This document shows, piece after piece, positions 3,886 to 35,137 of a stretch of 64,000 bases of DNA (the stretch's first letter is position 1; each line of letters starts with the position of its first letter). The stretch comes from an uncultured candidate division Zixibacteria bacterium. Lineage in GTDB: Bacteria; Zixibacteria; MSB-5A5; RBG-16-43-9. A model generated the notes under the pieces. That model worked only from the letters and a program-made list of their open reading frames with translations. It did not search any database and was not told the origin of the DNA. Made by a program: the position numbers and the translations under genes. The stretch spans positions 640,001 to 704,000 of the forward strand of contig OY970208.1 of NCBI GenBank assembly GCA_963713865.1, in the 5' to 3' direction.

Positions 3886-3990
3886 CTACTTCGAGATCTT
3901 TTTCATCGGAGCCCCGCAGCATTTCCCTGCTTTGCTGGAGGTATAACCACACTTTGGACACTTGTAGCTTGCTTTCTTTTTGGCTGGCAT
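3886..3990 (-). CDS. Small 34-aa Cys-rich protein MPAKKKASYKCPKCGYTSSKAGKCCGAPMKKISK (putative metal-binding)
   Basis: Hand-translated; strong SD AAAGGAGGTGA just upstream; CxxC...CC. Confidence 0.7.
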   Translation of the reverse strand: MPAKKKASYKCPKCGYTSSKAGKCCGAPMKKISK

Positions 3991-4086
3991 CTTTTTCACC
4001 TCCTTTGATGCAGGACTGGGAGTCCTGCCTTAGTAAACTCCTAAATTTTATTCATTGCCACGGGAGTGGCAACGCTATACTTACTT

Positions 4087-4200
4087 TCCCTCCCTTGAGG
4101 GGAGGAATAAAGGGAGGGTGAAGCAATTCTTATTTACCCCTCTCCTTAATCCTCTCCTCTACGAGCCGTAATGCTTTTATCGGCCACAAGGGGAGAGGAA
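4087..4200. repeat. REP-like element (CCCTCTCCC...GGGAGAGG family) carrying a 27-bp insert
   Basis: Related copies at 13373-13520, 15430-15561, 48802-48925. Confidence 0.75.
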
Positions 4201-4267
4201 CTTCGAAAGAACAACAGAATCTAATTTTTATAGCTTAGCAAAATCTTTTATTTTTCAAAGATCTTTC

Positions 4268-5005
4268 TTAAATTTTTTGAGAAAGAACAATCGTCCTGGG
4301 AGAATTGACTGTATAAGGGGATTTATCCTTTCTCCCATAGGTTTCTATAATTTTTAATCCGACTTTTTCTAAAAGATAGTTCACTTCCTCAAGGGTATAG
4401 AGCCGGACTTCAAACCAGCTTGACTTCTCACCCTTTTTGTCCAGAATAGTTATGTAATTTTTTATCCGCCCGGTCTTTAAATCCCAGCTCCTCTCTTCTA
4501 AAACTAAGGTCCCATCCTCTAATCTCTCCCAGTCTTTTGCCTGAAAATTTTTAACCATGATGTCCCGGTTCATAATCTCCAGAAGAAATTTACCCTCCTT
4601 TTTCAAGGCTCTGGATACTCCTCTTAATACCTCGAAATTCTCTTCGTCTGAGAAAAATCCAAAGCTGGTAAAATAGGAAATTACTCCGGTAAAATGGTTT
4701 TCAAAGGGGATTTTCCTCATATCCCCGACTAAAAACTCAATCTGCAGATTTTCCTTTTGCGCCTTTTCTTCCGCCATCCGGATGAACTTCTCAGTATAAT
4801 CCAGGCCGGTCATATCATAACCTTTTTTGGCTAAAGGGATAGTATGCCTTCCAAAACCGCAAGCCAAGTCTAAAATCTTGCTTCCGAGGGGTAGATTTAA
4901 AACCTCTGTTATGAAATCGACCTCTGCTTTAGTCCTCTCCTCAGTTAGAAAAGGCAAATATACCTGCAAGTAATCCTCTTTAAAAAACTCATCATACCAG
5001 GACAT
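4268..5005 (-). CDS. Class I SAM-dependent methyltransferase
   Basis: 'ILDLACGFGRH', 'GDMR', 'FTSFGFF'. Confidence 0.9.
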   Translation of the reverse strand: MSWYDEFFKEDYLQVYLPFLTEERTKAEVDFITEVLNLPLGSKILDLACGFGRHTIPLAKKGYDMTGLDYTEKFIRMAEEKAQKENLQIEFLVGDMRKIPFENHFTGVISYFTSFGFFSDEENFEVLRGVSRALKKEGKFLLEIMNRDIMVKNFQAKDWERLEDGTLVLEERSWDLKTGRIKNYITILDKKGEKSSWFEVRLYTLEEVNYLLEKVGLKIIETYGRKDKSPYTVNSPRTIVLSQKI

Positions 5006-5073
5006 AATTTTTTGCTCAATCCGTTAAACCGTTTTAGTGCCTGCCAGGTCCCCTGACCTAGCGGGAGAAATTT

Positions 5074-5574
5074 TTAATTTGTCAACCCTATCTCCACCTT
5101 TTCAGATTTTAAAGGCGGAATCGTATTCAAAACCCCTTCAATGTAATATCTCCCGCCTAAAACCCATTTTCTCTGGTTATCTTTAGCATCCCATTCGGCT
5201 TTGAAAGTCCAGACCTCTTCAGGATAGATGGAAAGCTTAATTGCAGTTTTATCGAATATTTTATCATAAGACCATTTCCAGACCTCAAACCCCTTTTTAT
5301 AAATTACAAAATCGAAAAGCTGATTTGTGGTAAAATTTAATTTCACCACATCCTCTGAGATATTTTCTATCTCTAATTTTAAATCCACCGGACCACCTAA
5401 GGGGTAACCCCTATCCTGAGTCAAAACCCGAACCTTTATCTTTTTGAAAAAACTCTCCTCTGGAGGGTTAGGTTCCTCTGGGTGATAAAGTGGAGCACAT
5501 CCAGAGAATAACAGTAAAAATAATAAAATACAAATCCTATAACCTTTGAGCAACCTCTCCTCCTGTATTTTCAA
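5074..5574 (-). CDS. Lipoprotein with BsuPI-like (proteinase inhibitor) Ig domain
   Basis: Lipobox 'FSGC'; 'L.F...Q.FDF.I....EVW.WS..K.F'. Confidence 0.65.
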   Translation of the reverse strand: MKIQEERLLKGYRICILLFLLLFSGCAPLYHPEEPNPPEESFFKKIKVRVLTQDRGYPLGGPVDLKLEIENISEDVVKLNFTTNQLFDFVIYKKGFEVWKWSYDKIFDKTAIKLSIYPEEVWTFKAEWDAKDNQRKWVLGGRYYIEGVLNTIPPLKSEKVEIGLTN

Positions 5575-24077: not shown

Positions 24078-25970
24078 TTAAGCAGGTGTATCTTTAGAAA
24101 ATACACCGCTTTTGGAAATAAACTGTTTCAGATAGACCATAAGAACGGCAATATCTCCTGGAGATACTCCTGAGATCCTCGATGCCTGTCCGATAGATCT
24201 GGGTTTTATTCTCATTAATTTTTCTTTTGCCTCCCTTTTAAAACCTTTGAGATTGGTATAATCGAACTCATCCGGGATGACCATATTCTCTAACTTCTTG
24301 TATTTCTCTATCTCCTTTAGTTCCCTTTGAATATAACCGTCATATTTTATTTCTATCTCCACTTTTTCTTTTACGATTTCCGGGAGTTCCTGAGGAACCT
24401 GGTCAATCTTAGCTAAATCTTCATAAGTTATCTCTGGCATTTTCAGAGCATAGGCTAAAGAGACCCTTTTCCCGTTTTTCTCTTCTTCTAAGAACTTGCC
24501 AAATGAGTTTAAAGGTACAAAAACCTGCTTCAATCTTTCCTTTTCCTCTTCAATTATTTTCTTATTTTCTTTAAATTCCTTGTATGCCTCATCTGAAATC
24601 AGATTATATTTATGACCATAATTTATAAGTCTATCATCCGCATTATCTTCTCTTAAAATTAATCTGTGCTCCGCCCTGGAAGTGAACATTCTGTAAGGCT
24701 CAGAAGTTCCTTTGGTAACCAGATCATCAATCAAAACACCGATATACGCTTGACTCCGATCTAAGATAAATGGCTTCTCTTTTCTTAATTTAAGAACAGC
24801 ATTTATCCCTGCAATAATCCCCTGTGCACCTGCTTCTTCATACCCTGAGGTTCCATTTATCTGGCCGGCAAAGAAAAGGTTCTCAACTAATTTCGTCTCC
24901 AAATTTGGCTTGAGCTGAGTTGGAGAGAAGAAATCATACTCAATCGCATATCCGGGTCTGGTCATCTCCACCTTTTCCAAACCGTGGACTGTTCTTAAAG
25001 CTTTTAGCTGAACATCTTCAGGCAAAGATGTGGCAAATCCATTAACATAATACTCTGTAGTATTATCACCTTCCGGCTCTAAGAAAAGCTGATGCCTGAC
25101 CTTTTCTTTAAATTTCACCACTTTATCTTCAATTGAAGGGCAATATCTGGGACCTACCCCTTTTATTACACCGCTAAAAAGAGGTGAGCGGTCCAGGTTC
25201 TTTAAAATGAATTTATGCGTAAGTTCATTTGTATAAGTCAGATAACAGGGATAATCCTTATGCTCTAAGCTTTTTGTTCTCATGGAGAAAGGTTTGATAT
25301 TATTATCCCCTAACTGAGGAATAGTTTTGGAGAAATCAACTGTTTTACCGTCAATTCTCGGAGGGGTTCCGGTCTTAAGTCTGCCAATCTCAAAGCCAAT
25401 CTCCTTAAGTTTATCTGAAACTTTTAAAGAAGGGAATTCACCAGCCCTTCCGGCAGGGAAGTTTACTAACCCAATATGAATTAACCCATTAAGAAAAGTC
25501 CCTGCAGTTAATATGACCGCATCTCCAAAATAAATAGTCCCAACTGATGATAAAACACCCCTAACTTTATTATTCTCTATAATAATCTCCTCAATATTCC
25601 CCTGTTTTAAAACCAGATTCCTTTGATTTTCTAAGGAGTTCCTCATAGCCATCTTATAAGCCACCCTATCACACTGAGCCCTTGAGGACCAGACCGCTGG
25701 ACCTTTTTTCTTGTTCAGGGTCTTGAACTGGATATAGGTTTTGTCTGTTACATACCCCATTTCTCCGCCAAGGGCATCGATCTCCCGGACTAAATGCCCC
25801 TTTGCCTGCCCTCCAATAGCAGGATTACAGGACATCTGGGCAATAGTCTCTTTATTCATAGTCAAAAGCAAAGTCTTACACCCCATCCGGGCAGATGCTA
25901 AAGCGGCCTCACACCCCGCATGCCCTGCGCCGATGACTATAACTTCAAATCTTTCTTCGTATTCAATCAT
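24078..25970 (-). CDS. mnmG: tRNA modification enzyme MnmG (GidA)
   Basis: 'GAGHAGCEAA', 'MSCNPAIGG', 'GPRYCPSIEDK', 'AGQINGTSGYEEA'. Confidence 0.98.
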   Translation of the reverse strand: MIEYEERFEVIVIGAGHAGCEAALASARMGCKTLLLTMNKETIAQMSCNPAIGGQAKGHLVREIDALGGEMGYVTDKTYIQFKTLNKKKGPAVWSSRAQCDRVAYKMAMRNSLENQRNLVLKQGNIEEIIIENNKVRGVLSSVGTIYFGDAVILTAGTFLNGLIHIGLVNFPAGRAGEFPSLKVSDKLKEIGFEIGRLKTGTPPRIDGKTVDFSKTIPQLGDNNIKPFSMRTKSLEHKDYPCYLTYTNELTHKFILKNLDRSPLFSGVIKGVGPRYCPSIEDKVVKFKEKVRHQLFLEPEGDNTTEYYVNGFATSLPEDVQLKALRTVHGLEKVEMTRPGYAIEYDFFSPTQLKPNLETKLVENLFFAGQINGTSGYEEAGAQGIIAGINAVLKLRKEKPFILDRSQAYIGVLIDDLVTKGTSEPYRMFTSRAEHRLILREDNADDRLINYGHKYNLISDEAYKEFKENKKIIEEEKERLKQVFVPLNSFGKFLEEEKNGKRVSLAYALKMPEITYEDLAKIDQVPQELPEIVKEKVEIEIKYDGYIQRELKEIEKYKKLENMVIPDEFDYTNLKGFKREAKEKLMRIKPRSIGQASRISGVSPGDIAVLMVYLKQFISKSGVFSKDTPA

Positions 25971-25982
25971 GGTTACATAAAA

Positions 25983-25998
25983 TGTTTCACGTGAAACT
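25983..25998. promoter_or_regulatory. parS: parS site overlapping the putative mnmG promoter
   Basis: TGTTTCACGTGAAACT (15/16); TTGACA on minus strand at 26002-26007. Confidence 0.88.
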
Positions 25999-26017
25999 TA
26001 TTGTCAAGGGAATAATT

Positions 26018-26053
26018 ACCTAACAAACAATTAAATAATCATACTTGTTGGGT
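26018..26053 (-). other. Minimal attC-like palindrome
   Basis: Minus strand: ACCCAAC-22 nt-GTTAGGT within a ttacc(c/t)aacaa inverted repeat. Confidence 0.5.
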
Positions 26054-26072
26054 AACTTTGAATGAACAAGTC

Positions 26073-26195
26073 TTATAACTCATCCAGGCAGATGCAAAAC
26101 CGCTTAGCGCCAGCGATACCCTGCTGGCAAATGAGGCGGCAATTGACAATCAGGTTTATCCTCTTGCTGGCGTCCGGCTGATGCGCTGGTTGGGC
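26073..26195 (-). other. attC site (degenerate right arm)
   Basis: Minus strand: GCCCAAC cagcgcatcagccggacgccagc...gctggcgc...GTTATAA. Confidence 0.65.
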
Positions 26196-26381
26196 GCTTT
26201 GCAACTATCTATATGGTACTCTATTGATATGTTTATTTAGCGGACGCTAAATATTTCCCGGGTTCGTTATTTCCCATATCACTTCCACCCCCCCTTACTT
26301 TCAGAATATTCTCAAACTATATTTTTGTTTACTTTGGGCAGCTTCAATAACTCTTTACGATTTATTCTCATCTTACTTTTT

Positions 26382-26756
26382 TTACCTGTCCTTAGTTCCG
26401 GCTGCAGGAATCTTCCTCAGCTTCATGATAAGGGATAAAATACCCAGTCCTATTAGCAGAGCGATGATGCCATAAACCCACCAGGGGATGTTCCGCCCAA
26501 AGAAGATCACATAGATAAAGGGCGCTACGGTAGCGCATAGAAAGATTGCGGTCCAGAGTATGACTTTTTTCCAGAGCTTTTTGGTGAGGGATTGAATGGT
26601 GCGAAATAATGAATAGTAGAATACCGGCGCACAAACCAGGTAAATAATCAGGAATACAACCGGATTGACACCATAATCATCACGAGCCATCTGTAATAGT
26701 TCCTCTATCTTTGATATTACATAATCTAACATCCTCTGATATCTCCATTCATTCAA
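26382..26756 (-). CDS. Cassette gene: small 3-TM membrane protein
   Basis: Three hydrophobic segments; bounded by GTTGGGT and GCCCAAC. Confidence 0.7.
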   Translation of the reverse strand: MNEWRYQRMLDYVISKIEELLQMARDDYGVNPVVFLIIYLVCAPVFYYSLFRTIQSLTKKLWKKVILWTAIFLCATVAPFIYVIFFGRNIPWWVYGIIALLIGLGILSLIMKLRKIPAAGTKDR

Positions 26757-26773
26757 TAATACAAGTGTTTAGC

Positions 26774-26831
26774 ACCCAACTGACCCGCTTCACCTACCCG
26801 AAGGGTGGTCGGATGCAACCACTTGTTGGGC
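26774..26831 (-). other. attC site (58 bp)
   Basis: Minus strand: GCCCAAC aagtggttgcatccgaccacccttcgggtaggtgaagcgggtca GTTGGGT. Confidence 0.8.
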
Positions 26832-26875
26832 ATCGGCAAGACATCACATCTATCCTGATTCGTCTCAAAGTCTAA

Positions 26876-27052
26876 TCAGCCTAACTTCTCGACAATAAAA
26901 AGAAAGTCCACCCGATGCGCCCAGGGAAACCCGAGCGTAACGTTCGGGAATATTGAGATGACTTCACCCTCCAGGCCGTTCAGGAATTGCTCTAATTTGT
27001 TCTGGTCGCTTGTCATCCTGATATCGAACCGGTGCACCCTGTATTTCATCAT
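26876..27052 (-). CDS. Small hypothetical protein, 58 aa (MMKYRVHRFDIRMTSDQNKLEQFLNGLEGEVISIFPNV...)
   Basis: Hand-translated; SD AAGGAG; below the ORF-track cutoff. Confidence 0.7.
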   Translation of the reverse strand: MMKYRVHRFDIRMTSDQNKLEQFLNGLEGEVISIFPNVTLGFPWAHRVDFLFIVEKLG

Positions 27053-27100
27053 CCTGACTCCTTTTTAAATAATTTACTATCTGTTTATACTACTACCAAG

Positions 27101-27631
27101 TTATGTACCTAACGAGATGCGCTGTATTGTTTTCACTGTATCATTTTCATAATTCGCCACGTCGAGTATCGCAATGCGTCCTGCTATCGCAAACTCCTCC
27201 TTGTTCCAACTTTCAGCCATTTCGATGCACTTTAGCGGGTCTTTTGAGTTCCCTATTCCCATATGCGGAACAAAGTTGGCAAAGAGCGCACGATGTGGAA
27301 ATAGCTTATCAGCGTATAGTTTGTCGTGGAGCTTTACGATTTTGCTGTACCCTTCATCTGGCACCAGAAAAGTGTGATAATTATCGTTGAAGGAATCTTT
27401 ATTGAGAACAGCACAGCGCAGGCAGAACTCAAATGGTCGAACTCCTTGCACTTGCTTCACGATTTCCGAGATAAAAGGTTTGGCTTCCCAACCTTTACGT
27501 ATAGGAAATACAAGCGCAAAATGTGGCTCGACCACATGGTAATATAACTCGTCATTACGTTTTCGGAATTCCTGTATCCGCTCATAATCGCTTTTTTTAA
27601 TTTCTGGATACGCAAGCACTAATAGTGCCAT
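27101..27631 (-). CDS. Cassette gene: 2H phosphoesterase (2'-5' RNA ligase family)
   Basis: Two His motifs 'PHFAL' and 'FVPHMGIG' about 85 aa apart; stop lies within ACATAAC. Confidence 0.7.
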   Translation of the reverse strand: MALLVLAYPEIKKSDYERIQEFRKRNDELYYHVVEPHFALVFPIRKGWEAKPFISEIVKQVQGVRPFEFCLRCAVLNKDSFNDNYHTFLVPDEGYSKIVKLHDKLYADKLFPHRALFANFVPHMGIGNSKDPLKCIEMAESWNKEEFAIAGRIAILDVANYENDTVKTIQRISLGT

Positions 27632-27684
27632 AGCTATTACTCCCCATTATGAAAGTTGATTTGAAAACTTTCTTGCATTTCGCT

Positions 27685-27704
27685 GCCTAACGCCATTGTT
27701 GGCC
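27685..27704 (-). other. Collapsed attC (R'' and R' 6 nt apart)
   Basis: Minus strand: GGCCAAC aatggc GTTAGGC. Confidence 0.55.
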
Positions 27705-27845
27705 ACTTTTCTTTTCACGGCTTTCTTGATAAATCGAGCCTCTTTTTCTCCCTCTTCATTCCGAATCTGGATCCTGTGGACCGGAAGGAGCCAGAGGTGC
27801 TCCTCCATCGTCTCAAACCAGTCTGGCATGTTTCGGTTCCTATAT

Positions 27846-27935
27846 GGTCAACTATGCGGATGAACCGCTCCGGTGAGACCGTCCGCGCTTTATACGGGTC
27901 GGCCGAAACCGGTTGGTAGGTAAAAACCGTTAAAT
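27846..27935 (-). other. attC site (degenerate)
   Basis: Minus strand: ATTTAAC...ccggtttcggccgacccg / cggacggtctcaccgg...GTTGACC, just after the 27941 stop. Confidence 0.6.
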
Positions 27936-27940
27936 GGACA

Positions 27941-28279
27941 TCAATTTTCTGATTTGGAACGTCTCCCAAACCAATAACCCAATAAGGGACCAACTAAGCT
28001 CACCATTACTTCAGTATTGATGAAATTAAAAATGCGCAAGGAGACAATTCCGGCAAAAATTATTAAGGCAAATAAATATGCGGCCCATAAAGATTGAATA
28101 CGATACGAATGATTCCTGGGTACGTTACTGGAATGAGCCTCTATAAAGGTCTTAATAGAAGTTCGAATTTCCTTACTATTCAGAAGGTCAGCGATAGCTA
28201 ACCAAGCTTCATCAGAAGGAGGAATTTCTTCATTAGGTTCTTTTTCAATTGGTTCTTGTTTCTCATCATCTTTGTTCAT
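27941..28279 (-). CDS. Cassette gene: hypothetical protein with two C-terminal TM helices
   Basis: SD GGAGG; preceded by GTTAGGC. Confidence 0.75.
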   Translation of the reverse strand: MNKDDEKQEPIEKEPNEEIPPSDEAWLAIADLLNSKEIRTSIKTFIEAHSSNVPRNHSYRIQSLWAAYLFALIIFAGIVSLRIFNFINTEVMVSLVGPLLGYWFGRRSKSEN

Positions 28280-28310
28280 ATCGAATCTCCTCCAAGTTTT
28301 TTTTATAGAG

Positions 28311-28377
28311 GCCTAACATGGGTTTATCTATACTAATTAAATTGCGATCGTTGGCTTTCTCAACCATATAAACCTCC
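28311..28377 (-). repeat. attI-like site, copy 1
   Basis: Minus strand: gcaatttaattagtatAGATAAAcccatGTTAGGC; homologous to 29849-29915 and 32258-32327. Confidence 0.7.
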
Positions 28378-28391
28378 TTTATTTGTATCTT

Positions 28392-28459
28392 CTATTTCCC
28401 TATACAAGACTCCGAAAAAATCTTGTCCAGGATATCTTCAGTACAACTTTCCCTAAATC
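28392..28459 (-). repeat. Diverged copy of the mnmE 3' end (33701-33770)
   Basis: About 62/70 identity including the stop codon (TAG vs TAA), two 1-nt deletions. Confidence 0.9.
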
Positions 28460-28539
28460 TGCAAGAGCCGAGCCGTTTTACGTTGTTATGTGATGAAACC
28501 GGTAGTTTTTCTTTATTCATAAAACCTATAAGCTCTAAT
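28456..28539 (-). repeat. Constant array-terminal segment (copy of 29931-30015)
   Basis: ~84-bp near-identical repeat; minus strand (G/A)TTAGAGcttataggttttatgaat...gcagatt. Confidence 0.9.
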
Positions 28540-28624
28540 GCAGAGGTAAGCGGCGGGCGAGTTATAGTCTTCCAGAAAAATCAAACCATGTTCAACGCCC
28601 GTCCGCTTGACCGAATTGTTCGGC
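28533..28624 (-). other. attC site with mutated core (ATTAGAG)
   Basis: Minus strand: GCCGAAC aattcggtcaagcggacgggcg...cgcccgccgcttacctctgc ATTAGAG. Confidence 0.85.
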
Positions 28625-28633
28625 AATTTCCGT

Positions 28634-29077
28634 CTATCTCCATAGGTAGCCTGCCTCCTTTGCTTTGGCTACCAAGCTGGAATACGACTCAACCTCAATA
28701 AATGGCGCCCACTGACCATACTTCTTTTCTAATGAACCATCTTGGTGTTTAACGATGTGCCAATAAGGTAACCAAACTGATGAAGAACCCTTATCAATTG
28801 ACTCGACGATAACCAAGAATGGATAAAATTCGACCTTGCCACCATTTCCGTTCGACCAACTTACGATCTGATCAGGGAGAAAGGCTGTCAAAACCCTACA
28901 GTGATGCTGACCAGCACCCAAACCAAAATTGAAAGTAAGTTCAATGCTCATGGGCAACGCGCACGATTCGCATGCGTGCCCTTGGCCATTGGCATGATCA
29001 TGGAGAGCAACAAATAGATTTGCTATCCAGGTTTTCTTATGACACGCCCCACAGACATAATATCTCTGCGTTGCCAT
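28634..29077 (-). CDS. Cassette gene: Zn-ribbon (CxxC...CxxC) hypothetical protein
   Basis: 'CGAC', 'CESC'; bounded by GTTGGGC and GCCGAAC. Confidence 0.75.
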   Translation of the reverse strand: MATQRYYVCGACHKKTWIANLFVALHDHANGQGHACESCALPMSIELTFNFGLGAGQHHCRVLTAFLPDQIVSWSNGNGGKVEFYPFLVIVESIDKGSSSVWLPYWHIVKHQDGSLEKKYGQWAPFIEVESYSSLVAKAKEAGYLWR

Positions 29078-29099
29078 CTTGGATTCCTACTTGTGTGTG

Positions 29100-29186
29100 G
29101 CCCAACGCGGTGTTAATCTGCGAGGTGAACTTTTAGCCCAATTTGAAGTCCTCCAGTACAGAGTTAGCTTGAACACGTTGTTAGCC
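29100..29186 (-). other. attC site
   Basis: Minus strand: GGCTAAC (contains the stop codon) aacgtgttcaagct...cagattaacaccgc GTTGGGC. Confidence 0.75.
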
Positions 29187-29828
29187 ATTTTTTATTCTGT
29201 TAAGCAATTCTTTACAATATGAGGTTTTATATGATATTAAACCCAATTTTCCCCTTAATTTGTTTGCAGAAATATTTCGTTGTTTTGATAATATTTCTTT
29301 TGCCTGAATTTCATAATAACTCTCTTTTAATAATCCAAAATGCCATAAAAGCCTAATAAGGGATAAAACATCATCCTTCGGGTCTATTTTTGGATCTTTG
29401 CCGATATATAGGATTAAGCCGTCAAGTACTTTAGATTCCAATAACTCGCCTTCAATAACAGTTACATCTTTTGGAATTTTATTTTTAATTCGATCAGCAA
29501 TATTAATTCCAAAAATTGTCTGAATAACTTTTTTGTCTTTCCAACGTTCTTTTGCCAATTTTCTTGATTCTTTAATTTGTTTTAAAATTCTATCTAGCGA
29601 TTTATTATGAAATGTACTGTTAATATTGGATTTGCATTCACAAATATTAACCTTTTTCGGATCTTCCGGATCAATTGCGATTAAATCAAAATCAGTAGTA
29701 GCTGTAGATGGACTATATTTTGTTATTTTCTTTCGGTCATATCTAATGGGCAAATTTTCAATTACAAAAGCACCATTCAATCTTTCCATCCATAATCTAC
29801 AAATTCGCTCAAACGGATGATAGGCCAT
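29181..29828 (-). CDS. Cassette gene: PD-(D/E)XK nuclease-like protein
   Basis: 'FE', 'DFDLIA', 'ICECKS' motif order. Confidence 0.7.
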   Translation of the reverse strand: MAYHPFERICRLWMERLNGAFVIENLPIRYDRKKITKYSPSTATTDFDLIAIDPEDPKKVNICECKSNINSTFHNKSLDRILKQIKESRKLAKERWKDKKVIQTIFGINIADRIKNKIPKDVTVIEGELLESKVLDGLILYIGKDPKIDPKDDVLSLIRLLWHFGLLKESYYEIQAKEILSKQRNISANKLRGKLGLISYKTSYCKELLNRIKNG

Positions 29829-29848
29829 TTTTAATATCCTCTTTTCAT

Positions 29849-29915
29849 AGCCAACATAGGTTTATCTGTTCTAATTAAATTGCGACCACTGTCTTTCTTG
29901 ACCTTATAAGCCTCC
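29849..29915 (-). repeat. attI-like site, copy 2
   Basis: Minus strand: gcaatttaattagaacAGATAAAcctatGTTGGCT. Confidence 0.7.
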
Positions 29916-30008
29916 CACAAACTTACTCACAATCTGCAAGAGCCGAGCCGTTTATACGCTGTTATGTGATGAAATCGGTAGTTTTTCTTCATTCATAAAA
30001 CCTATAAG

Positions 30009-30132
30009 CTCTAACGGGATTTTCACCGATCAAACCGCAAAGAGATACTTCCCTGAAAATTGTGATGGACCGAACTCTCAAAATTAGAAAAAGTAGTGCG
30101 CGGTTCGATCAGCGTGCAAAATTGGGTTATGG
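30009..30132 (-). other. attC site (124 bp)
   Basis: Minus strand: CCATAAC ccaattttgcacgctgatcgaaccgc...gcggtttgatcggtgaaaatccc GTTAGAG. Confidence 0.85.
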
Positions 30133-30140
30133 CTATTAAC

Positions 30141-30956
30141 CTACATATCTTTTTTCTCTATATTATTCCCATGATAATGAGTTATTGATAGAACTTGACG
30201 CAATACACTTAATGGTTCATTAGGAATAGGCATTGGTATTAGAATTTTATCAATAGGATACTGAAAAGGTGATAATATTTTACTAACCATAGTGAGAAGA
30301 CCAATGATATCTGGTTCTACAGGGTGAAAGGGTATAGCTAATAATTTCCAATGATACGTATCACGTTTTGCTCGAATGAACGCTGATCCATATGCATTAA
30401 CAAAGGGTAATAATACAGTCATTAATTGTTTCTCAACAATTTTCTTACTTTTTATAGCTCCTTGAAGTGAATCAAATAGATCTATAAAGTTATCTACGGG
30501 AATCGATAATATGCCCAGTCTCTTACCCCGAAATTCATCGATATGAGAACGCCAAGGTATAAGTTGCTCTTGATACTGGGAACCTAGCTGCAAAGCTTCA
30601 ATCATTGGATATATCATTTGTGCAGAATTAAATTTTTGGTTAAGAAATATAAATTCATCAAATGATATTCCAGATAAGGAAAACATAACTGAACAATACG
30701 GTGATTCCGCAAGTCTATAAGCATGTCCAGCTATTTCAAAAGATTCTTGTGATCCTGTTAGGTCAGAGAGCAGTAGAGAGTGAGCAGCAGAACGCCTGAA
30801 ATATGTGGCAGCAATAAATGCTAAAGAAATGCGATTTTGAATGGTTTCTTCTTTCTTGGCATGTGTAAAATAGGTATGTCCAATCTCACTATAAACATTA
30901 CCAAGACGCATAACACGTTCCGAGTCAAGCTCAGCTAGAAATTCATATTTAATCAT
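30141..30956 (-). CDS. Cassette gene: helical hypothetical protein, partner of the ADP-ribosyltransferase
   Basis: 19 bp downstream of the ART gene in the same cassette; SD GAGG; Ala-rich TPR/SNAP-like helices. Confidence 0.75.
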   Translation of the reverse strand: MIKYEFLAELDSERVMRLGNVYSEIGHTYFTHAKKEETIQNRISLAFIAATYFRRSAAHSLLLSDLTGSQESFEIAGHAYRLAESPYCSVMFSLSGISFDEFIFLNQKFNSAQMIYPMIEALQLGSQYQEQLIPWRSHIDEFRGKRLGILSIPVDNFIDLFDSLQGAIKSKKIVEKQLMTVLLPFVNAYGSAFIRAKRDTYHWKLLAIPFHPVEPDIIGLLTMVSKILSPFQYPIDKILIPMPIPNEPLSVLRQVLSITHYHGNNIEKKDM

Positions 30957-30975
30957 TGATGTTTCCTCGTTGAAA

Positions 30976-31620
30976 TCATATAATCACATCACGGATATTA
31001 GATATTTCTTCTGGAGAAATGTACTTACGAGTGTTAAAAACTTCACTCGTTGGTCTAGGTATTTGCCTTGATCTGAACGAAGTAAGAGTAGAATTAATTT
31101 CATAATAACAGTATTTCTCGATTTGTGTTGGTGGTATATTTATCTTAGCTGTGACTTCACCTTCAGGTTGAAAAGGGCTGAAACCTGTGTATATATTTAA
31201 CTCTCTAACTTCTTCAGAAAAAGGTCGGTGTGCTATGCTTTGTTTACCAAGAACGAATAAATAACAATGAAACAAATATCCATCATGCGACCACCCGTCT
31301 GTAGCGAATTCAAGTGCAATGAGCCAAGCAGGATGCCGAATATTAATTCCTGCTGCTGGATTTCTCTCAATAGAACCTGCGGTTGTTGAAATGAATGGAG
31401 TATGTTTGTAGAAAGGTTCTCCACCTTCCTGTGGGTCGGGGTCCGTAAATCTGTTCTGATGCCAAAATAAATTACGATCTGTAAGACGTACATATACTTC
31501 TACTTCGGGCATATTATGTACTTTATTCCACCAGTTACATAGAATACCCACATTCATTATATTATCAGCTTCATTTTTCGAAATGCCTCCAATCCCTCTT
31601 ATTACTTTTTGAATAATCAT
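30976..31620 (-). CDS. Cassette gene: R-S-E clade (cholera/pertussis-toxin-like) ADP-ribosyltransferase
   Basis: 'VIRG', 'PFISTT', 'PEGEVTAKINIPPTQI' parallel CtxA 'LYRA', 'YVSTS', 'EQEVSALGGIPYSQI'. Confidence 0.75.
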   Translation of the reverse strand: MIIQKVIRGIGGISKNEADNIMNVGILCNWWNKVHNMPEVEVYVRLTDRNLFWHQNRFTDPDPQEGGEPFYKHTPFISTTAGSIERNPAAGINIRHPAWLIALEFATDGWSHDGYLFHCYLFVLGKQSIAHRPFSEEVRELNIYTGFSPFQPEGEVTAKINIPPTQIEKYCYYEINSTLTSFRSRQIPRPTSEVFNTRKYISPEEISNIRDVII

Positions 31621-31642
31621 TTTTAATTTTCCCTTAATTATG

Positions 31643-31712
31643 CCATAACGTTACACTCCACCGGCTCGTAGCCCACCGCGGGCTTCGCGTGCGGTGGGAG
31701 CGATAGTTGGAC
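31643..31712 (-). other. attC site (70 bp)
   Basis: Minus strand: GTCCAAC tatcgctcccaccgcacgcgaagccc...gggctacgagccggtggagtgtaac GTTATGG. Confidence 0.88.
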
Positions 31713-31713
31713 A

Positions 31714-32250
31714 TTAAAATAGTTCTTTCAAACTGTCTGCAAAGGCCTTGAGTTTCAACATTGTTTCAGGATTGTCTCTTACCTCTCGTGGGAGAAAGTC
31801 TTCTTTATGATCCCGCAGGTATTCCCACACGAAATCGCGGATATGAAACGGAAGGCTGAGGATATTCCCTGATCCTTGGGTGATAATTCCCTTGTTCAAG
31901 AGGGAATTAGCCGTTTGGTTGATTGCGGTTGCACTGAGTGTCTGGACATTGTGGAACAAGCAGTAGGCGATCCATTTGTATTCCGACAGATCAAGAGTTC
32001 GCAGGCGTTTGATTATGACAGCCTTTTGCCTTGCTTTTCCTCGGATTTCAGAAAACCAATTGGAGACACATATGGTGGCTGAGAAGATTAGTCCGAGCCA
32101 ACAAAATCCGAGATAATCGAGCTTGATCTTTTCCAGTCCGAGTGACTTCGATGTGTCGGTCGGCAAAAGGATTACGAAAAGACAGACGAAGAATACTCCC
32201 CAAGCGTACTTCGCTACTGCCTCAAGTATTGTTGATATAGCTTCAATCAT
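31714..32250 (-). CDS. Cassette gene: superinfection exclusion protein B (SieB)-like membrane protein
   Basis: Two TM helices then 'L.TL...E..I..C', 'SL..KGII', 'I.DFVWEYL'. Confidence 0.6.
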   Translation of the reverse strand: MIEAISTILEAVAKYAWGVFFVCLFVILLPTDTSKSLGLEKIKLDYLGFCWLGLIFSATICVSNWFSEIRGKARQKAVIIKRLRTLDLSEYKWIAYCLFHNVQTLSATAINQTANSLLNKGIITQGSGNILSLPFHIRDFVWEYLRDHKEDFLPREVRDNPETMLKLKAFADSLKELF

Positions 32251-32257
32251 ATCTTAC

Positions 32258-32327
32258 GTCCAACATAGTTTTATCTACACTAATTAAATTGCTTTCACTA
32301 TCTTTCTTGACCATATAAACCCCCTCC
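32258..32327 (-). repeat. attI-like site, copy 3
   Basis: Minus strand: gcaatttaattagtgtAGATAAAactatGTTGGAC. Confidence 0.7.
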
Positions 32328-32407
32328 AAACCTCCCCACATTCTTAATGACAGACTGTACTTCTCGCCATAGGTCACGCTTGTGAACAAGAAGAAATTCG
32401 AGGCCAT

Positions 32408-32572
32408 TTAGATGGGAATGTATTTTTCAAAAATATCAATCTCGTCATAATCAGGATTAAAGTCCCTCATTAAAGTTTTTTTCCTATTATCTGCTAAATG
32501 TCGAGTAAAAAATATTTCAGGCTCCTGAATAAAACCTCTTTTGACAAAGGTTAAAATCCATATTTTTTTCAT
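32408..32572 (-). CDS. Small hypothetical protein, 54 aa (MKKIWILTFVKRGFIQEPEIFF...DEIDIFEKYIPI)
   Basis: Hand-translated; starts 2 nt after the upstream stop; SD AGGAG. Confidence 0.6.
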   Translation of the reverse strand: MKKIWILTFVKRGFIQEPEIFFTRHLADNRKKTLMRDFNPDYDEIDIFEKYIPI

Positions 32573-32574
32573 TC

Positions 32575-33480
32575 TTACACTCCTTTCATTCTCTTAAACC
32601 AGCTATACACATCTCTATATTCCATAAAGTTGCAAATATCGGTCAATCCACTCGTCCTAAAGGTGGGACGACCGATCTGCCTTAGGAACATAGACCGCCT
32701 TGTATCATTTGAGACAATGTTGAATTTTAGTTTCAAATTAGGTTCAATAAGATGCATATCATTAAATCTGAGTAACCCAGAATATATCGGCGTTGAATAT
32801 TCAACTTCGAAAATTGCGGTTAGCTCACTAGAACCTCTCTGAATCCATATAACATCAACTTCCCTGATAATATTGTCAACCTTTTCATATCGCACTGGCA
32901 AATCACTTCTACAAGCGTATTCTTCTGCCAAGCTCCAATCCAATTTATTTCTATCATTTAATGGTATCCAGATGTCATGACCTTTTATTGTCCCTATTGA
33001 GCCGATCAAAGTTTGAATTTGAGAATGACCGAGGTCCGGCATAACCACAATCTTATTTTTATCGATCAGATTATCTAAAATATGCCATCCATAAAAACCC
33101 TCTATATTGAACCGACCAGCATTGGCAATATAAAGCTCGGTTTCCTCACCAGGATAAATCTGAACCTTGTATTGACCATCAGAAGCTGGCGTCAGAGAGT
33201 TGAATATTTCTTCAAAATCTGTAAAAGGTACAAAAACAGGCTCTGTTTGAGTATCCCATAAAAAGCAAATAACAGAATTAACTCCTTCCAATTGTTTTAT
33301 ATCATCTCGCCGTAATCCAAAAAATGTCTTGTCTCTATCGTGAACTTTTGAATATCTTATATATATTCGTGCTAAGCCATCGCCTATCTCAAATAAAGAG
33401 AGACTGTTCGGTAATCGTTTTGGTTTACCATATTTACTTCTTAATTGTTCTAGAAAAGCTTTCTTAAATGGATTTGCCAT
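32575..33480 (-). CDS. Restriction-endonuclease-like PD-(D/E)XK protein
   Basis: 'HSQIQ..I..IG..KG.DIWIP.ND', 'VDVIW', 'FEVEYSTPIYSGLLRFND'. Confidence 0.72.
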   Translation of the reverse strand: MANPFKKAFLEQLRSKYGKPKRLPNSLSLFEIGDGLARIYIRYSKVHDRDKTFFGLRRDDIKQLEGVNSVICFLWDTQTEPVFVPFTDFEEIFNSLTPASDGQYKVQIYPGEETELYIANAGRFNIEGFYGWHILDNLIDKNKIVVMPDLGHSQIQTLIGSIGTIKGHDIWIPLNDRNKLDWSLAEEYACRSDLPVRYEKVDNIIREVDVIWIQRGSSELTAIFEVEYSTPIYSGLLRFNDMHLIEPNLKLKFNIVSNDTRRSMFLRQIGRPTFRTSGLTDICNFMEYRDVYSWFKRMKGV

Positions 33481-33487
33481 AGGATTG

Positions 33488-33606
33488 TTATAACGTAATT
33501 TCAGTTTATCATCGCACCTGCCCCACGGTGATTGTGACGATTAGTTGCAATGACTCATCCGGTATGGTCTTCAGTAGTTCTATACAATCACCGGGATAAA
33601 CAACAA
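33488..33606 (-). other. Degenerate attC-like palindrome ending in GTTATAA
   Basis: gtttatc...cggtgattgt / acaatcaccg.gataaac arms; core 7 nt upstream of the ATG. Confidence 0.45.
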
Positions 33607-33661
33607 TTTGCTCTGACAGTGCAAATTTCTGAACTATTTTTCTCTTGTCGAACATAATACT

Positions 33662-33690
33662 ATGATAATAAAATGTAGGTTTAGAGTCAA
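33662..33690 (-). promoter_or_regulatory. Putative sigma70 promoter driving the cassette array
   Basis: TTGACT-17 nt-TATCAT right after the mnmE stop. Confidence 0.65.
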
Positions 33691-33700
33691 CGGATTCATT

Positions 33701-35137
33701 TTATTTCCCTATACAAAACTCCGAAAAAATCTTATTCAGTATATCTTCAGTTACAACCTTCCCTACAATCTCACCGATTGAATCTAAAGCAACTCTCAAA
33801 TCTAAAGCCACAAATTCAAAGCTCATATTTTTCAAAAGGCTATCCTTAGCCAGAGATAGAGATTGAACTGCTTTTGCTAATGCTTCTTTATGTCTTAAAT
33901 TACTAATTAATCCGCCTAAGGCGGACTGGTCAAGTCCTTTTTTGGAAAAGAAGACCTCAGAGGCAATTTTATCTTTTAATTCCTCTATACCCCAGCCTTT
34001 CAAAGCTGAGATATTATGAATTTTTTTAGATATTTCTTTTTGCTCTAATCCTTCAGAGAGCTTCTTTTCTATTTCTTTGACTTTTTCATCTGAGACTAAA
34101 TCCACCTTATTAATCGCAATTATATAACTAAAATCAGCTAATTCTTTTTCTAAGTCTTTATCCTCTTTTGTTATACCGGTCTCCGCATCAACAACAAAAA
34201 CTATGAAGTCAGCTTTACTTATCTCAATCTTTGTCTTTTTAATCCCTTCGATCTCGATCTTATCTTTAGAGACCCTGAACCCCGCTGTATCGGTCAACCT
34301 CACCGGCAAACCTTTGAAATTAGTATATTCGCTGATCACATCCCTGGTAGTCCCTGGAATTGGGGTAACAATAGCCCGCTCCTCTTTTAAGAATGCGTTT
34401 AAAAGGGAAGATTTGCCAACATTGGTCTTTCCCACAATCACAACCCTTAATCCTTCTCTCAAAATCTTCCCCTCTTCGTAGGTCTCGATCAAACTTTTTA
34501 TCTGGGATTCAATCTTCTCTATCTTTTCTAAAACAAAAGACCTGTCCAGATCCTCAATCTCTTCCTCTGGAAAATCTATCCTTGCTTCCAATTCAGCTAA
34601 AATAGAAATCAACTCTTCCTGGATGAGATTTAGTTTTTCAGATAATTCACCCTGAAGATGTTTCAGGCTGTGTTTCAGGCTCAAATCTGTCTTCGCCTTT
34701 ATGATCTCAGCCACTGCTTCAGCCTGGGCTAAATCGATCCGTCCGTTTAAAAAAGCCCTGAGTGTAAATTCCCCAGGATTGGCAAGTCTTGCCCCACACT
34801 TTATTATCTCCTCAAGCACCCTGCAAAGAACAAGAGGGCTTCCATGACAGCTTATCTCGACCAGGTCTTCTTTGGTATAGCTTTTAGGTGCCCTGAAGAC
34901 TGTAAGATAAACTTCGTCTATCACCTGCCTGGAATCCGGAGAAATTAGCTTTCCATAATTTGCTTTATGGCTTTCTGCTTTGCTAAGTGATATTTCCCCT
35001 TTGAAGATTTTATCAGCAATAAAAATAGCTTTTTTGCCGCTAATTCTTACTATACCGATTCCGCTTTCTCCAAAGGGAGTAGAAATAGCTGTTATGGTAT
35101 CTTCTGTGTCAGAGAGATACCCCAAAGATTTCTCCAT
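33701..35137 (-). CDS. mnmE: tRNA modification GTPase MnmE
   Basis: 'DTITAISTP.G', 'GKTNVGKSS', 'GTTRD', 'DTAG', 'FCIGK'. Confidence 0.98.
   Translation of the reverse strand: MEKSLGYLSDTEDTITAISTPFGESGIGIVRISGKKAIFIADKIFKGEISLSKAESHKANYGKLISPDSRQVIDEVYLTVFRAPKSYTKEDLVEISCHGSPLVLCRVLEEIIKCGARLANPGEFTLRAFLNGRIDLAQAEAVAEIIKAKTDLSLKHSLKHLQGELSEKLNLIQEELISILAELEARIDFPEEEIEDLDRSFVLEKIEKIESQIKSLIETYEEGKILREGLRVVIVGKTNVGKSSLLNAFLKEERAIVTPIPGTTRDVISEYTNFKGLPVRLTDTAGFRVSKDKIEIEGIKKTKIEISKADFIVFVVDAETGITKEDKDLEKELADFSYIIAINKVDLVSDEKVKEIEKKLSEGLEQKEISKKIHNISALKGWGIEELKDKIASEVFFSKKGLDQSALGGLISNLRHKEALAKAVQSLSLAKDSLLKNMSFEFVALDLRVALDSIGEIVGKVVTEDILNKIFSEFCIGK

Follow-up and report, generated by a model that had tools for sequence, protein, structure and literature searches.

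A predicted ADP-ribosyltransferase and its all-helical partner form a conserved gene pair, found as a cassette in a Zixibacteria genome, and are a candidate anti-phage module

Within a 64,000-nt stretch of DNA from an uncultured candidate division Zixibacteria bacterium (assembly GCA_963713865.1, contig OY970208.1, positions 640,001 to 704,000; the whole stretch is herein referred to as the window), two adjacent minus-strand genes encode a 214-aa protein with a predicted ADP-ribosyltransferase (ART) fold and an all-helical partner of 271 aa, and the pair is probably an undescribed two-gene anti-phage module made up of an ART toxin and a protein that neutralises it or acts as its sensor. The open reading frame (ORF) of the ART-like enzyme (30976..31620, minus strand; defined by the ORF list, a structural model, Foldseek and residue counts in homologues) lies 5' of that of the partner (30141..30956, minus strand; ORF list, profile search, alignment and structural model), with 19 nt between the two and a purine-rich stretch resembling a ribosome-binding site ahead of each. 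An earlier note, made from the letters of the window, had put forward an ART and a helical partner as a candidate toxin–antitoxin (TA) or anti-phage pair; our analysis supports that proposal, and the defence-island neighbours of the pair in other genomes add to the support.

The transferase-like enzyme and its helical partner

The 214-aa protein is predicted to adopt the ART fold with its split β-sheet NAD+-binding core, so that the structure prediction bears out the fold proposed in the earlier note. The AlphaFold2 (AF2) model, built on a 40-sequence alignment, has a predicted local distance difference test (pLDDT) score of 80.2 and a predicted template modelling (pTM) score of 0.80, and the matches listed for it by Foldseek in the PDB are ADP-ribosylating toxins only (TreX/TreTu, pertussis S1, cholera and heat-labile enterotoxin (LT) A1, PltA, MTX and pierisin; best E 1.6e-4, with four rows at E ≤ 0.001). 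The VIA structure matches of the model are likewise ART toxins only, and the language-model neighbours of P0005, a homologue with 69% identity, are the NarE, Pertussis_S1/Scabin-like, ArtA and Lart1 clusters.

Neither protein of the pair matches any entry in Pfam, PADLOC, NCBIfam or PHROGs (no family at E ≤ 0.1 in the Pfam and PADLOC-DB v2.0.0 scans of both), in keeping with the suggestion that the pair belongs to no named system. None of 40 enzyme homologues matches the ART families of Pfam (Pertussis_S1, Enterotoxin_a, Scabin-like, NarE, ADPrib_exo_Tox, DarT) even at E ≤ 10, and a sequence search of the PDB with the profiles of the ART and partner families gave no match of note (best E 0.018, to an eIF2B-epsilon fragment, and 0.41, respectively). 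A word-indexed search with the enzyme recovered 253 relatives at E ≤ 0.001, nearly all of 212–216 aa and all annotated as hypothetical, the named ones spanning several phyla. A search of proteins of 407–2000 aa yielded no longer or fused version of the enzyme, which is weak evidence, and no signal peptide is evident by eye in the 214-aa protein, whose model begins strand β-1 at residue 2; the earlier description of the enzyme as lacking such a peptide thus stands. One protein of 279 aa, P0213, is matched by the ART profile (219 bits) and, in addition, by the C-terminal half of the partner profile; it reflects either a deletion that fused the two genes or an artefact of assembly or gene calling.

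The catalytic motifs of the R-S-E ARTs, which the earlier note had read in their typical order, are present in the window protein (VIRG, PFISTT and PEGEV, together with IPPTQI), and residue counts over 120 homologues separate those that characterise the family from the one that does not. S78 and T80 are found in all 120 and T79 in 103, on a predicted strand at 77–80, and just before a strand at 157–159, position 153 is Glu in 118 homologues and Gln in two, while G154 and E155 are invariant. Judged by sequence, the S-T-S and E-x-E motifs are signatures of the R-S-E clade. Enzymes of this clade carry the NAD-binding Arg on strand β-1, and residue 8 of the window protein, the Arg of VIRG, lies in the predicted β-1 in an h-h-[R/K]-G context that resembles the aromatic-Arg of the toxins; in the family at large, however, this position is Lys in 107 homologues, Arg in nine and a gap in four. 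The Ser-Thr-Thr and E-x-E elements are conserved, but the VIRG Arg is no family feature. Genetically detoxified pertussis toxin carries two substitutions, one of which is R9K (PMC7406505), and we infer from this that the family either tolerates Lys at residue 8 or uses another invariant basic residue in its place. Other basic residues include R139 (120/120), R86 (116/120) and R45 (113/120). The segment W53-H54-Q55-N56 is also invariant, and we could name no counterpart for it. The E-x-E motif is typical of arginine-modifying toxins, as stated for TreX (PMC11606950).

For the partner, a word search returned only six relatives, and a profile hidden Markov model (HMM) run over 1.84 billion cluster representatives returned 221 at E ≤ 0.001, mostly of 255–300 aa. 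In an alignment of 53 sequences the mean column identity is only 32%, and within it R54, F73, G148, W203 and P212 are invariant and H202, F210, H211, E214 and P215 nearly so, forming the motif F210-H211-P212-x-E214-P215. The AF2 model (pLDDT 94.1) is entirely helical, with 13 helices and a TPR/SNAP-like N-terminal part, and the language-model leads for the partner are TPR/SNAP-like only, all below 0.9. Foldseek gave no match to the model at E ≤ 0.001, and its 50 best structural matches in 48,161 chains include no macrodomain, NADAR or ADP-ribosylhydrolase, an absence that is not an exclusion; the earlier reading of the partner as helical, TPR-like and no evident macrodomain or hydrolase agrees with both results. 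Among the 53 members a single stray Pfam match was obtained, and no DNA-binding domain that could serve autoregulation is recognisable in the partner. One homologue of 441 aa, P0164, carries a weak HATPase_c-like C-terminal extension (E 0.006).

Conservation, distribution and genomic company of the pair

The two genes are inherited together. At 15 genome loci, belonging to Verrucomicrobiota, Chloroflexota, Cyanobacteria, Gammaproteobacteria, Acidobacteriota and Bacteroidota, the enzyme gene is followed immediately by a partner gene on the same strand, detected by the HMM in 14 cases and by BLAST clustering in the fifteenth (L020). The same arrangement is found in 57 of the 58 metagenome loci that leave at least 300 nt of room (68 loci in total), and in the sole exception, L065, the ART gene is truncated. 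The conservation of the gene pair, which the earlier note had named among the checks of its proposal, is therefore close to complete. Where the start codons are unambiguous, the genes are separated by 6–23 nt or overlap by 1 nt, and the pairwise identities of enzyme and partner are correlated (r = 0.87; 120 pairs from 16 loci); the enzyme evolves about half as fast as the partner (mean pairwise identity of 50% for the enzyme vs 25% for the partner). No third gene is general to the 15 genome loci. In three of them a receiver-domain-like protein of 232–273 aa with a borderline score of 28–30 bits is encoded next to the pair, downstream in two and upstream in one (L007 3611-4429, L008 1928-2623 and L009 5132-5911); together with the HATPase_c-like tail mentioned above, these neighbours hint that some variants may have a link to signalling.

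The distribution of the pair is patchy. Across this genome and 40 relatives, the ART gene is found in this genome only (1/41), and in the phylum of another carrier it is found in one of 401 genomes. Most carriers are Acidobacteriota, Chloroflexota, Verrucomicrobiota and Cyanobacteria from soil and sediment.

Elsewhere the pair is frequently found in the company of defence genes. We called 116 neighbouring ORFs and scanned 107 with Pfam, leaving out nine partner ORFs; 61 of the 107 were scanned with PADLOC after clear housekeeping and transposase matches and most short ORFs had been dropped. PADLOC models match neighbours within approximately 4–5 kb of the pair in eight of the 14 loci submitted, a figure to be read qualitatively, as some of the models are generic domains and there was no matched control. 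The most extensive neighbourhood is that of L013, with SIR2-APAZ, a short pAgo and bSEFIR immediately upstream and an LmuA-like protein downstream. The others comprise PDC-M36A/B (L014), OloA/OloB of the Olokun system (L020), PDC-S62 (L010), a PD-T4-6-type kinase (L012), E1-E2/JAB and LmuA/RTasMBL-like proteins (L018), a DrmC/MkoB-like PLD protein (L006) and a mad3/AriA-like ATPase (L015). Pfam matches among the neighbours include integrases, a TrwC relaxase, insertion sequence (IS) transposases and a Gp49/HTH pair, and no secretion-system gene was found among the 107 neighbouring ORFs scanned. In the window itself, the adjacent cassettes are SieB-like and restriction-enzyme-like.

The cassette and its chromosomal setting

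In this genome both genes lie in one cassette of 1634 nt (30015..31648, minus strand), which runs from TTATGG to the G of GTTAGAG and whose ends are derived from two flanking attC-like sites. Its complementary cores, GTTATGG at 30126–30132 and CCATAAC at 31643–31649 on the plus strand, are exactly where the earlier note had placed them, with the genes on the minus strand; in cassette orientation, GTTATGG precedes the pair by 29 nt and CCATAAC follows it by 9 nt. The SieB-like gene immediately upstream has the same property, with GTTGGAC 14 nt ahead of it and GTCCAAC 2 nt after it, and in both cases the first six bases of the cassette are complementary to the core that follows the stop codon. 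When 5000 gene-sized intervals were drawn at random from the window, a GTT-anchored 7-mer with its complement in the opposite 120-nt flank was found for 1.8%.

Each core is also placed as an integron cassette requires, since the upstream one closes the site running 31712->31643 and the downstream one opens the site running 30132->30009. The upstream site, which belongs to the SieB-like cassette (31643..31712, 70 nt; identified by sequence, fold and flank test), reads GTCCAAC ... GTTATGG on the minus strand, its last six bases, TTATGG, being the first bases of the ART cassette, and the intergenic stretch 31713->31621 (93 nt) folds with a free energy of -15.3 kcal/mol under DNA parameters, with the stem inside the 70-nt site. 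The downstream site, that of the ART cassette itself (30009..30132, 124 nt; identified by sequence and fold), reads on the minus strand CCATAAC, then an imperfect stem in which 30125-30099 pairs with 30039-30018, then GTTAGAG; the 124-nt imperfect hairpin forms part of the minimum-energy fold predicted for the 312-nt stretch 30140->29829. An attC site is an imperfect hairpin of approximately 57–141 nt, and the integron core consensus is GTTRRRY/RYYYAAC, from which the cores here deviate at one position. Rfam yielded no family at E ≤ 0.1 over 25500-34000, and holds no attC model. A strict attC scan found a terminator-like hairpin only, and the sites described here rest on region-wise folding and the flank test.

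No integron integrase (IntI) scores above the cut-off in this genome. The best match is a 97-aa C-terminal remnant approximately 82 kb away, outside the window (G000:C1:753844-754137, equivalent to L001 1417-1710; 106.7 bits over model positions 247–315), which is followed by a small gene that is SnoaL-like by eye and suggests a decayed integron platform at that distance from the ART cassette. Three of the 40 relatives, none of the same family, have full IntI genes. Because the cassette features are present but no integron integrase is nearby, we read the array as resembling a cluster of attC sites lacking integrases (CALIN). This setting is local to this genome and one metagenome locus and is not a property of the family: the cassette form of the pair was seen at none of the 15 genome loci and at one of the 34 testable metagenome loci, L098, where a degenerate copy bounded by attC sites with canonical GTTAGGC/GCCTAAC cores lies at 3920-5300 and matches the ART HMM over positions 1–64 only and the partner HMM over 107–261 only.

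The array occupies the interval between mnmE (33701-35137) and mnmG (24078-25970), approximately 7.7 kb of small minus-strand genes in a window that contains the origin region. The SieB-like gene (superinfection exclusion B) occupies its own cassette directly ahead of the ART pair (31714-32250, minus strand, 178 aa; Pfam PF14163, E 2.2e-11), and beyond it are an ORF for a 301-aa protein with a weak match to a type II restriction enzyme (32575-33480, minus strand; PADLOC REase_II, E 3e-7) and a 48-aa ORF that by eye resembles the N-terminal stub of a DNA methyltransferase (33509-33655, minus strand); to judge from their sequences, these two may be a decayed restriction–modification unit right after mnmE. 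On the other side lies a gene of the 2H-phosphoesterase/2'-5' RNA ligase superfamily (27101-27631, minus strand, 176 aa; PF13563, E 4e-10), in a block that shares 94% identity with G001, a relative of the same genus, and 85% with G003.

The interval is also variable in the three relatives examined (G001, G003 and G006). All three share some blocks of the interval with the window (27846-27089 and 26802-26110 in the case of G001), and the ART pair, the SieB-like gene and the genes for proteins of 215 aa and 147 aa are absent from the interval of all three. The last ~53 nt of mnmE (33699-33751) are duplicated 5.3 kb downstream at 28390-28442 with 91% identity, and local repeats D1 and D2 recur at cassette boundaries (28313-28538, 29851-30014 and 32260-32344), D1 always ending in a GTT core and D2 starting exactly at the G|TT crossover point at 30014. 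Extra partial mnmE 3' ends are found in G001 and G006, and copies of local repeats in G001, G003 and G006. Given the duplicated mnmE end and the recurring repeats, both also seen in relatives, the interval looks like a recombination hotspot in which the repeats are not ordinary attC sites.

Proposed function, alternatives and relation to known systems

We hypothesize that the two genes form one operon, its products being a mono-ADP-ribosyltransferase that belongs to the R-S-E (cholera/pertussis/Scabin/TreX-like) clade and works in the cytoplasm, and a helical, TPR-like protein cognate to it. The transferase would act as a growth-arresting effector that uses NAD+ and, as its E-x-E motif suggests, would modify a conserved protein of the cell or of the phage at an arginine. 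The partner, made from the same transcript, would bind the enzyme and keep it inactive, and would perhaps also be the sensor that releases it upon phage infection, so that the module would bring about abortive infection in a TA-like manner; in this genome the pair would have been captured as an integron-type cassette in the integrase-less array between mnmE and mnmG. The enzyme-first gene order, the coupled partner, the strict co-inheritance, the patchy, mobile spread and the company of defence genes together give the anatomy of a toxin with its cognate neutraliser. There is a precedent in TreX, an R-S-ExE ART whose non-hydrolase immunity protein occludes the active site (PMC11606950), and this precedent and the anatomy of the pair lead us to favour a module that works by release from inhibition. 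That the TPR-like partner keeps the transferase inactive until infection or loss of the module sets it free, whereupon the transferase ADP-ribosylates a target arginine, is in our estimate the likely course of events, if by no means an assured one.

Several observations weigh against this interpretation. With Lys at residue 8, the family may rely on a different residue, have another mode of action or show weak activity. Confidence in the model falls below a pLDDT of 50 at 127–138 and 142–144, just ahead of the E-x-E motif, and the C-terminus is also weak. For a conflict toxin the enzyme is unusually conserved, with 58% mean column identity across phyla, and the near-invariant polar set of the partner (R54, H202, H211 and E214) is enzyme-like, which fits a catalytic partner as well as a plain inhibitor. 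No homologue was found in 72,556 plasmids, 50,697 phage records or the IMG/VR contigs. A scan for promoters and terminators gave eight sites against 8.1 expected from shuffles, with no outstanding promoter-like site upstream of the pair on the minus strand. Inhibition and release, finally, explain neither why the partner conserves its His, Glu and Arg residues nor why the enzyme family has Lys in place of the Arg.

The strongest of the alternatives, though still an unlikely one, holds that the pair is purely an addiction module that stabilises the array or island carrying it and has no role in phage defence. Chromosomal integrons commonly contain TA cassettes and are stabilised by them (10.1101/2024.07.02.601686), and the array in which the pair here forms a cassette no longer has its integrase; however, cassettes are confined to the window and the degenerate L098 copy, the pair elsewhere adjoins defence systems, and addiction modules of this kind would sit uneasily with a partner that has no recognisable DNA-binding domain for autoregulation. 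A more speculative idea, to which we give slightly less weight, is that the partner represents a new class of enzyme, and more than an inhibitor, with a catalytic centre formed by R54 and H202-W203...F210-H211-P212-x-E214-P215, which would reverse arginine ADP-ribosylation or sense a phage product, that the transferase works with Lys at the position for which the characterised R-S-E toxins all require Arg, and that the pair is a new kind of reversible immune switch, based on ADP-ribosylation, for which defence islands and integron cassettes are the vehicles.

Two further readings strike us as improbable, to a similar degree. Under the first, ADP-ribosylation by the pair is reversible or regulated, and the partner is a hydrolase of new fold (cf. 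DraG, Tri1 and DarG), an activator or a substrate. This would account for the near-invariant His, Glu and Arg residues in the partner's loop motif YHW...PFHPxEPD and for the high conservation of the enzyme, and the receiver-domain-like gene at three of 15 loci and the weak HATPase_c-like tail of one partner homologue would find a place in it; against it stand the rare, patchy spread and the mobile-element neighbours, which argue against a housekeeping regulator, and the absence of an ADP-ribosylhydrolase, macrodomain or NADAR from the 50 best matches, although that absence excludes nothing. Under the second, the enzyme has the ART fold but is not a protein transferase, being instead an NAD+ glycohydrolase, a modifier of nucleic acids or small molecules, or a pseudoenzyme. 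The replacement of the first-motif Arg by Lys in 107 of 120 homologues would agree with this, as would the presence of the DNA-modifying Scabin and pierisin among the closest structural relatives and the poor modelling of the region of the ADP-ribosylating turn-turn (ARTT) loop; pseudoenzymes usually lose such motifs as S-T-T and E-G-E, however, which are invariant or nearly so here, and E-x-E rather than Q-x-E is the arginine-specific signature, as stated for TreX (PMC11606950). That the enzyme is a secreted toxin aimed at other bacteria or at a host, paired with an immunity protein or chaperone, is very improbable, for although its best structural matches are to toxins that are secreted or injected, and the order of toxin then immunity gene is the same, the enzyme is a stand-alone protein that starts at β-1 with no delivery domain, has no longer fused form at 407–2000 aa (weak evidence) and no secretion-system genes in the 107 neighbouring ORFs, and is carried mostly by soil and sediment bacteria.

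Conservation of the pair is strict and extends over at least six phyla, the carriers being for the most part uncultured bacteria of soil and sediment. If the pair is a defence system, it would have a new effector–partner architecture and probably a new cellular or phage target of arginine ADP-ribosylation, and ART enzymology would gain from a family in which Lys naturally stands in for the canonical catalytic Arg. The pair also offers a concrete case of a two-gene module of defence type that was captured as a cassette, in an array that is not from Vibrio and has no integrase. We did not find the enzyme–partner family described in the literature by word searches, which cannot find sequence families and did not cover supplements, and 'ADP-ribos' is absent from the main texts of two preprints on integron defence, whose supplementary tables could list such a cassette.

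Among characterised proteins, the closest comparison is with TreX of the Rhs type VI secretion system (T6SS) of Xenorhabdus bovienii (PDB 8s2m, 9gco), with which the enzyme shares approximately 16% sequence identity; TreX makes up the C-terminal domain of a secreted Rhs protein and depends on thioredoxin, whereas the enzyme here is free-standing at 214 aa. The immunity protein TriX is a mixed β/α wedge (PMC11606950), whereas the partner here is all-helical and twice the size of the matched TreX chain. The arginine-specific R-S-ExE ART Tre1 and its neutraliser Tri1, which inserts a helix into the active site, form a similar couple, yet Tri1 has an ADP-ribosylhydrolase fold and Tre1 is delivered by a T6SS (PMC11606950), neither of which is seen here. 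More generally, the toxin domains of Rhs, contact-dependent inhibition (CDI) and T6SS polymorphic toxins end large delivery proteins, unlike the 253 homologues here, nearly all of which are 212–216 aa. Pertussis S1, cholera/LT A1, PltA/ArtA, NarE, Scabin and pierisin differ in that the enzyme here has no B subunits, signal peptide or eukaryote-directed context, and the family departs from the classical R-S-E mono-ARTs in the Lys that most members have at the Arg position and in its lack of any Pfam ART match.

CmdTAC has three components, including a chaperone, against the two conserved genes here; we set it apart by this description and not by the sequence of CmdT. The likeness to it lies in the use of an ART effector in anti-phage defence (10.1101/2024.02.24.581662), and the likeness to DarTG in a two-gene ART toxin and neutraliser with the toxin gene first, in defence islands and in abortive infection (PMC13069673). 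An ART with its neutraliser is hence a known kind of module, represented by DarTG, CmdTAC, Tre1–Tri1 and TreX–TriX, and it is the enzyme family and above all the partner that are undescribed in the libraries searched.

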